A DNA stretch of 64,000 nt from Escherichia coli (GTDB lineage Bacteria; Pseudomonadota; Gammaproteobacteria; Enterobacterales; Enterobacteriaceae). Made by a program: the position numbers and the translations under genes. The notes under the pieces were generated by a model that was given only the letters and a program-made list of their open reading frames with translations, was not told where the DNA came from and ran no database searches. Shown here in pieces: positions 42,199-45,868 of the stretch (the stretch's first letter is position 1; every line of letters begins with the position of its first letter). Location of the stretch: the NCBI RefSeq assembly GCF_003018255.1, contig NZ_CP027440.1; one strand, 5' to 3'.

Positions 42199-43179
42199 AT
42201 GGCTTTTACACCTTTTCCTCCCCGTCAGCCTACGGCGTCTGCCCGTTTACCGCTGACGCTGATAACGCTTGATGACTGGGCGCTTGCCACCATTACTGGC
42301 GCGGACAGCGAAAAATATATGCAGGGTCAGGTGACAGCAGATGTCAGCCAGATGACAGAAAATCAGCATCTGCTCGCCGCCCATTGCGACGCCAAAGGTA
42401 AAATGTGGAGCAATTTACGTCTGTTCCGCGACGGCGATGGCTTTGCATGGATTGAACGGCGCAGTGTGCGTGAACCGCAGCTGACTGAACTGAAAAAATA
42501 TGCGGTGTTCTCTAAAGTGACCATCGCGCCGGACGATGAGCGTGTGCTGCTTGGTGTTGCCGGTTTTCAGGCGCGCGCCGCGCTGGCAAATATCTTTAGT
42601 GAACTGCCTTCGAAAGAAAAACAGGTAGTTAAAGAAGGCGCGACCACTTTGCTATGGTTTGAACACCCTGCAGAACGTTTCCTGATCGTAACCGATGAAG
42701 CCACTGCCAATATGCTGACCGATAAACTGCGCGGTGAAGCGGAACTGAACAATAGCCAACAGTGGCTGGCATTAAACATTGAAGCGGGTTTCCCGGTGAT
42801 TGATGCCGCCAACAGCGGGCAGTTTATCCCACAGGCGACCAACCTCCAGGCGCTGGGCGGCATTAGCTTTAAAAAAGGCTGCTATACCGGACAAGAGATG
42901 GTGGCGCGAGCAAAATTCCGTGGTGCCAACAAACGCGCGCTCTGGTTGCTGAAGGGTAGCGCCAGCCGACTGCCGGAAGCGGGTGAAGACTTAGAGCTGA
43001 AAATGGGCGAGAACTGGCGTCGTACCGGTACGGTGCTGGCTGCGGTCAAACTGGAAGATGGTCAGGTTGTGGTGCAGGTTGTCATGAATAACGATATGGA
43101 ACCGGACAGCATCTTCCGCGTGCGTGACGATGCGAATACATTGCGTATCGAGCCACTGCCATATTCGCTGGAAGAGTAA
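42199..43179 (+). CDS. ygfZ: folate-binding protein YgfZ (Fe-S cluster repair / tRNA modification associated)
   Basis: 326 aa; conserved KGCYTGQE motif. Confidence 0.9.
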
Positions 43180-43186
43180 ATCTCTG

Positions 43187-43243
43187 TATCGCATCAGGCA
43201 TTTATCGCCTGATGCGACACTGGTGTGTCTTTTCAGGCCTACA
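43187..43243. repeat. REP/BIME-type extragenic palindromic element
   Basis: GCCTGATGCGACactggtgtgtcTTTTCAGGCCTAC preceded by the inverted partial copy TCGCATCAGGC. Confidence 0.65.
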
Positions 43244-43255
43244 ACGACGCACCAA

Positions 43256-43918
<663 letters not shown>

Positions 43919-44078
43919 TTACTCCGGAAAAACGTACACGCACATGTATACCTCTCCAGCGTAACTGAGAATAGTTCCAGTGAACACCTGTTAGCTAAAA
44001 TAAATTCTGATTTGAGATTAATCTCCGAAAAATCATGAAATTAAATGCGAAATTTCAACTAACAGGCGTGAGTTCAAT

Positions 44079-44390
44079 TTAAAGGCATTTAAATTCAATC
44101 ACATAAAACTGTGTCTGGTCGGGATAGATGTCGGCAATGACCTTTTTCAGTTCAGTCAGGGTCATATTTTCCTGCTTTGCATGTTTTTCCGTCAGCGTAT
44201 CCAGCGTTACGGTTGAGGTTGCGGTGACTTCAATCGTGCAAAAATAACTGTCATCTTCAAACCGTCCGACACGAAGCACATCACCCGTTTTGAAGTGCGA
44301 TTCAGACTCGTCGCGGATGGTGATGGTTTTACGCCCAGCCAGAATGTCATCCTGGAAACGTTGAAAAAAAGTGATGTCGTTTGGCTGCAT
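44079..44390 (-). CDS. yqfB: ASCH-domain protein
   Basis: 103 aa. Confidence 0.85.
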
Positions 44391-44407
44391 GGTACTATTT
44401 CCTGTAA

Positions 44408-45868
<1,461 letters not shown>

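Follow-up and report, generated by a model that had tools for sequence, protein, structure and literature searches.

The long-range inverted repeat in the spacer between yqfB and trhA (yqfA) of Escherichia coli is most plausibly a DNA-level regulatory feature of trhA, made up of a proximal FabR operator (O1), a weak auxiliary operator farther upstream (O2) and an IHF-like bend that would assist the mutual stabilisation of the two. We put the probability of this reading at about 60%. This is a genuine, conserved feature that works at the level of DNA and for the most part already has an explanation. O1 was previously known, and O2 and the IHF-like site are predictions drawn from sequence patterns. 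An inverted repeat is seen because any near-palindromic operator that is present twice forms an inverted repeat with its second copy, and each of the arms is a TGTTAG/CTAACA half-site of a FabR-type palindrome. A promoter or operator architecture was among the explanations offered in the original prediction. That explanation is supported by the left arm, which corresponds to a validated FabR box, and by the right arm, which corresponds to a FabR-like palindrome at fixed spacing.

The original prediction described a pair of complementary octamers between yqfB and yqfA, and both its coordinates and its gene names are correct. The octamers match exactly at the positions listed in Table 1, within the 163-nt spacer that separates the two genes, and each is present in one copy in the window (the whole 64-kb stretch of DNA that was analysed). 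By itself, such an octamer match would not have been statistically convincing. Exact 8-bp inverted repeats with loops of 3-100 nt are commonplace: the window contains 181 of them, and one arises in 12% of spacer sequences shuffled with their dinucleotides preserved. Our repeat search extends the pair to 18-nt arms that are complementary at 15 of 18 positions, and this extension is rarer than the octamer pair, being matched in just 2 of 300 shuffles. The spacer itself is a single-copy sequence with 95-100% identity in 5425 of 5426 complete E. coli genomes.

Table 1. Features of the yqfB-trhA region, in window coordinates; positions in the fourth column are relative to the predicted trhA start.
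Feature	Coordinates	Strand	Position	Sequence	Basis or remark
trhA (yqfA)	43256-43915	-			PAQR-family membrane homeostasis protein; gene under the promoter studied
Predicted trhA start	43951	-	+1		Homology to mapped Salmonella start; 36-nt 5' UTR
-10 hexamer	43958-43963	-	-12 to -7	TACGCT	Salmonella promoter sequence ends ...TACGCTAGAGGCG, last base = +1
Near-invariant spacer between -35 and -10	43964-43978	-		GGAACTATTCTCAGT	80-species alignment
FabR operator O1 of trhA/yqfA	43979-43996	-	-45 to -28	AGCTAACAGGTGTTCACT (sense)	
Predicted -35 hexamer	43981-43986	-	-35 to -30	TGTTCA	3/6 to consensus; within O1
Extended left arm, 18 nt	43984-44001				Repeat search
Left arm octamer	43987-43994			CCTGTTAG	Exact sequence match; inside O1
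T-tract, UP-element-like	43997-44007	-	-56 to -46	GAATTTATTTT	Outer part of left 18-nt arm
IHF-consensus-like element	44031-44043	+	-92 to -80	AATCATGAAATTA	Third conservation island
Extended right arm, 18 nt	44052-44069				Repeat search
Distal FabR-like palindrome O2	44057-44074	-	-123 to -106	AACTCACGCCTGTTAGTT (sense)	
Right arm octamer	44059-44066			CTAACAGG	Exact sequence match; inside O2
yqfB (N4-acetylcytidine amidohydrolase)	44079-44390	-			Upstream neighbour, same strand; stop codon 4 nt from O2

Other palindromic or structured sequences were encountered in the vicinity. An 11-nt inverted repeat with a 4-nt loop (TTCAATTTAAA / TTTAAATTCAA, 44073-44098) spans the stop and last codons of yqfB and abuts the distal box. 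Where ygfZ and trhA converge, the plus strand of their intergenic spacer (43166-43239) gives a sub-threshold Rfam match to naRNA4/CssrE, scoring 27.1 bits against a gathering threshold of 59.5 (E 0.03), which probably reflects a REP-type palindromic element.

The proximal box is a bona fide FabR operator that has already been published. To score this and other candidate boxes, we used a symmetrised FabR weight matrix built from the E. coli fabA and fabB boxes together with 75 trhA boxes, one from each species where a first pattern search had found it. O1 is the top match to this matrix in the whole window, with a score of 24.8, and it resembles the E. coli boxes of fabA (AGCGTACACGTGTTAGCT) and fabB (GGCGTACAAGTGTACGCT). 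All 80 species retrieved, which range from Escherichia to Erwinia and Pectobacterium, have this box ahead of trhA, and it overlaps the core promoter elements of trhA as positioned from a start mapped by dRNA-seq in Salmonella. The sequence also fits the FabR core published in a Salmonella study (ACAnnTGTnnnnT), the plus strand at 43984-43996 reading ACAccTGTtagcT.

Experimental evidence on FabR control of this gene comes from three organisms. In Salmonella, ChIP-chip, ChIP-qPCR and transcriptomics have established that the yqfA promoter is bound by FabR in vivo and repressed by it, and a Klebsiella fabR deletion mutant overexpresses yqfA. In E. coli, a 3-nt mutation of the FabR box of trhA derepressed the gene and abolished its response to FabR and to oleate in a plasmid fusion (PMC9017321). 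Alignment of the mutant primer of that study (…TTTTAGCTAGTGGGTGTTCACTGG…) with the wild-type minus strand (…TTTTAGCTAACAGGTGTTCACTGG…) places the substitution, ACA>GTG, at 43989-43991, inside the left arm of the repeat. Studies in E. coli are at odds on whether FabR regulates yqfA at all. The place of trhA/yqfA as third member of the FabR regulon is established.

The layout of the trhA promoter was assembled largely by homology. Differential RNA-seq of Salmonella SL1344 identified a primary yqfA start with a 37-nt 5' UTR, and the last base of the reported promoter sequence (ATTTTAGCTAACATGTGTTCACTGGAACCATTCTCAGTTACGCTAGAGGCG) is +1, which falls seven nt after TACGCT. The -35 hexamer of trhA was placed from this -10 element, a 17-bp spacer and the position of the start site. 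Both a TAnnnT sequence at a fixed offset from O1 and a T-rich tract upstream of O1 are kept across the 80 species compared (80 of 80 for the former). The tract in E. coli, GAATTTATTTT, resembles an UP element. A consensus promoter scan left the trhA promoter below threshold, with its weak -35 and its TACGCT -10, and the E. coli start-site data of Kim 2012 hold no start at this promoter. We rejected the TATTTT directly upstream of O1 as a -10 element, given that several species have T in place of its A and that the Salmonella start lies 38 nt farther downstream.

The 15-nt spacer between the -35 and -10 hexamers (43964-43978) is almost invariant, reading G[GA]AAYCATTCTCAGT across the 80 species from Escherichia to Erwinia, and this is far above the conservation usual for a promoter spacer. 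It could be an extended FabR contact or the site of another regulator. Readings of the conserved CTGGAAYCATTCTCAG block as a sigma-E, sigma-32 or sigma-54 element, made by eye, gave no fit.

O2 is a probable auxiliary FabR site, predicted from its sequence and its pattern of conservation. The E. coli copy is weak, with a matrix score of 0.8 (rank 18 among 63,982 window positions), whereas fabA, fabB and O1 score 22-27. Its core, ACGccTGTtagtT, departs from the FabR core by one mismatch, an ACG in place of ACA (A8 of the consensus is G). O2 also lies outside the core promoter elements and would therefore be an auxiliary operator at most, and never a primary one. Among the 80 species, the best upstream match to the matrix stands 75-78 bp from O1 in 36, and in 23 of these the match has an empirical p<1e-4. 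These 36 species include members of Escherichia, Citrobacter, Salmonella, Klebsiella, Raoultella and Enterobacter, as well as Leclercia, Kluyvera, Yokenella, Pluralibacter, Phytobacter and Superficieibacter. Near-perfect FabR boxes occupy the O2 position in several species (TGGTAACACGTGTTAGCT, TGCGTACACCTGTTAGTT and AGAGAACACCTGTTAGTT), and six species with no yqfB upstream retain the distal box as well. In one species (L074), the primary box itself has ACGCCTGT. Absence of the repeat from close relatives had been named as the outcome that would count against it, and both arms are in fact kept well beyond Escherichia.

The phylogenetic footprint reveals O2 as an island of conservation within an otherwise diverged, AT-rich spacer. 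In the alignment, AC.nnTGT.AG keeps its A, C, G, T and G without variation, and the central nn is the most variable part, as would be expected of two bases outside the specificity of FabR. Across 37 sequences, the core is ACAnnTGT in 22 and ACGnnTGT in 15. What is kept is the right half, TGTTAGYT, together with the inner ACR of the left half, and the outer left half is unconserved. In six other E. coli genomes, the box cores, the central motif and the -10 element are all left intact by the spacer SNPs. The only SNP inside O2 (44067 C>T, in E. coli strain 7CC) converts ACGccTGT into the canonical ACAccTGT. In the putative RNA helix considered below, the same substitution replaces G.U pairing at one position by A-U.

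A second arrangement was found in six further species, again without yqfB upstream, in which the best match to the FabR matrix is 65-66 bp from O1 and thus about one helical turn closer. Three of these boxes are strong (p<=1.1e-4) and three are weak. The species concerned (L054, L065, L061, L060, L017 and L043) also have no IHF-like motif. The occurrence of a second box at either 65-66 or 75-78 bp hints at conserved helical phasing. In Atlantibacter subterranea (L053), yqfB adjoins trhA and the spacer is about 28 bp shorter, with neither the distal box nor the IHF-like motif; adjacency to yqfB alone therefore does not require either element.

Accessible literature contains no mention of a second FabR box or an IHF site at trhA; either may have been described before. 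Published ChIP data are unable to separate sites 78 bp apart. Alternative readings of the distal box as a FadR or a CRP site fit poorly when compared by eye with the consensus sequences.

Between the two boxes lies the third island of conservation, which reads TAAYnnnnnTGATT on the sense strand of the alignment. The E. coli element, AATCATGAAATTA, agrees with the IHF consensus at eight of nine specified positions, and GAAAAA stands immediately 5' of it. For this assignment, we take the consensus to be WATCAANNNNTTR with a 5' A/T tract. The conserved columns of the element are exactly the positions that the consensus specifies. Of the 36 species with a distal box, 33 have this motif at an unchanged position when one mismatch to WATCARNNNNTTR is allowed, and 11 of these matches are perfect, including that of Klebsiella pneumoniae (AATCAAAAAGTTA). 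Two Phytobacter species (L037 and L041) also have the motif, and in these the matrix mis-ranked an ACG-variant distal box. In the remaining 42 species, no IHF-like motif was found at that position (0 of 42). The co-occurrence of O2 and the IHF-like element is confounded by the common descent of the spacer, and AT-rich DNA in general offers IHF matches with one mismatch fairly often.

The mechanism that we propose would operate as follows. FabR bound at O1 would cover the -35 hexamer and the edge of the UP-like T-tract, and RNA polymerase would thereby be excluded. O2 would serve as a weak auxiliary FabR operator. The IHF-like site would bend the intervening DNA and so allow mutual stabilisation of the FabR dimers on O2 and O1, which would tighten repression. 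The centre-to-centre distance between O1 and O2 is 77-78 bp, or about 7.4 helical turns, and the boxes therefore lie on different faces of straight DNA. The predicted centre of the bend is about 3.5 bp off the midpoint between them. Mutation of O1 alone abolished FabR control in the plasmid fusion, and so O2 is insufficient for repression and may not matter.

It is possible, if rather doubtful, that the trhA region forms a small repressosome, in which O2 and O1 would be joined by an IHF bend at about -85. Where the IHF-like site is missing, the distal box of the species groups concerned is about one helical turn closer, which would keep the phasing. Repression would then be cooperative and dependent on IHF, hence on growth phase, unlike that of fabA and fabB. 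The operators of those two genes resemble O1 in that all are sites for a TetR-family repressor (FabR/DesT), all are 18-bp imperfect palindromes with the core ACAnnTGT and all overlap a core promoter. Judging by their sequences, the fabA and fabB boxes take up the whole interval from -35 to -10, with a FadR activator site adjoining. In contrast, the trhA box lies over the -35 and the region upstream of it, and trhA has no FadR site. Furthermore, a second FabR-like box and an IHF-like site are found upstream of trhA, whereas nothing comparable exists at fabA or fabB. At fabB of E. coli K-12, a second match to the FabR matrix (GGGAAACAGGTGTACCCT, score 6.8) was observed 157 bp upstream of the known box; it is 222 nt upstream of the fabB start codon and inside the divergent gene mnmC.

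A better-known arrangement of this general kind is the Gal repressosome, in which GalR occupies OE and OI, spaced 113 bp apart, with HU at the apex. In its sequence pattern, the trhA region shares with it two operator-like palindromes for one repressor less than 120 bp apart, a putative site for a bending protein roughly midway between them and a weak distal operator that is insufficient on its own. The two would differ in their bending protein (HU for Gal, the sequence-specific IHF for trhA) and in their spacing (113 bp versus 78 bp). FabR is not known to form bridges as a dimer of dimers.

Among other explanations, it is unlikely that the distal box is a real, conserved DNA site of another protein, such as a regulator or a nucleoid protein, or a composite IHF/upstream activating region whose likeness to a FabR box is coincidental. 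The restriction of its conservation to the TGTTAGYT half and the inner ACR would suit such a site, as would a conserved TGAAA flank at O2 that is missing from the FabR boxes of fabA and fabB, the low matrix score in E. coli and a location (-123 to -106) that is unusual for a repressor operator. However, the pattern of conserved and variable positions in O2 mirrors the FabR core ACAnnTGT with its central nn free, many species have near-perfect FabR boxes there, and a second lineage carries a FabR-like box one helical turn closer, all of which count against this reading. We consider it very improbable that the right arm is a functionless chance match and that the proximal operator alone matters. 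The commonness of 8-bp inverted repeats (in the window and in shuffled spacers alike) would permit such a match, and the E. coli O2 ranks only 18 in the window; furthermore, mutating O1 alone removes FabR regulation. Nevertheless, chance is already disfavoured by conservation: O2 forms an island at a fixed spacing in 36 species while the spacer around it has diverged. The rarity of the 15/18 extension weighs in the same direction, as does the absence of core-disrupting SNPs from the six E. coli genomes, where the sole SNP in O2 improves the match.

The remaining alternative shifts the function from DNA to RNA. In a transcript reading through from yqfB into trhA, the arms could pair into a helix of 18-20 bp with a 50-nt loop, which could uncouple the two mRNAs as a 3' stabiliser or be a processing site for RNase III, and the distal box would then be conserved as the obligate complement of the constrained O1 and T-tract. 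We judge this to be quite improbable. In its favour, all three mismatches of the 18-nt arms become G.U pairs on the transcribed (minus) strand, and the sense RNA folds at -28.9 kcal/mol (z -4.4) as against -20.6 (z -3.0) for the antisense. A helix between the two boxes is part of the minimum-energy fold in 33 of 37 species, with a median z of -3.2, and the T-tract pairs with the conserved GAAA that flanks O2. A terminator scan of both strands between 43700 and 44500 returned no site, including downstream of yqfB, and the hairpin formed by the arms has a 50-nt loop and no U-run after its 3' arm. The potential for helix formation is lower in the six species without yqfB (0, 0, 11, 11, 15 and 7 pairs). 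G.U cells outnumber A.C cells by 83 to 9 on the sense strand across the alignment, although this count is dominated by three inherited columns.

Covariation speaks against an RNA helix. Pairing across the alignment is 84.8%, identical to the 84.8% in shuffles, with 261 of 500 shuffles as high, and both the number of changes on both sides and the covariation score equal expectation. The freely varying central nn pair in only 20-21 of 37 sequences, near the 50% expected. Since O1 is constrained for other reasons, complementarity of O2 would be conserved under RNA pairing and under a second operator alike. Both arms lie upstream of the trhA start, and therefore the helix is absent from trhA's own mRNA and only read-through from yqfB could carry both arms. 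The left arm is fully accounted for by a proven DNA operator, and a FabR-like core persists where yqfB is missing and is found at another spacing too. An Rfam scan of 43000-45000 returned nothing within 43916-44078, even at E<=10. Like intercistronic stem-loops of the RNase III type, the sequence lies between co-directional genes and could form a helix of some 18-20 bp, in which G.U pairing is confined to the transcribed strand. It differs from them in showing no covariation, in lying upstream of the trhA start and in being explained by two palindromic DNA sites. A variant of the two-operator reading, in which the O1 and O2 sites also form an RNA helix in yqfB read-through transcripts, is less likely.

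The addition that auxiliary elements would make to this known regulatory region is modest. There are nevertheless some general points for genome scanning. When a promoter region shows a long-range inverted repeat, a palindromic operator present twice can be all that lies behind it, and the same arrangement can incidentally produce an RNA hairpin that folds strongly and has a low z-score. The gene concerned encodes a bacterial PAQR homologue that affects membrane energetics, and fabA and fabB, the other members of the FabR regulon, set the unsaturated fatty-acid content of the membrane. If the two-operator reading is true, a weak, IHF-dependent auxiliary operator would make repression of trhA sensitive to the strain, the growth phase and the boundaries of the reporter construct. 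Such sensitivity could help to explain the conflicting results on FabR and yqfA in E. coli.
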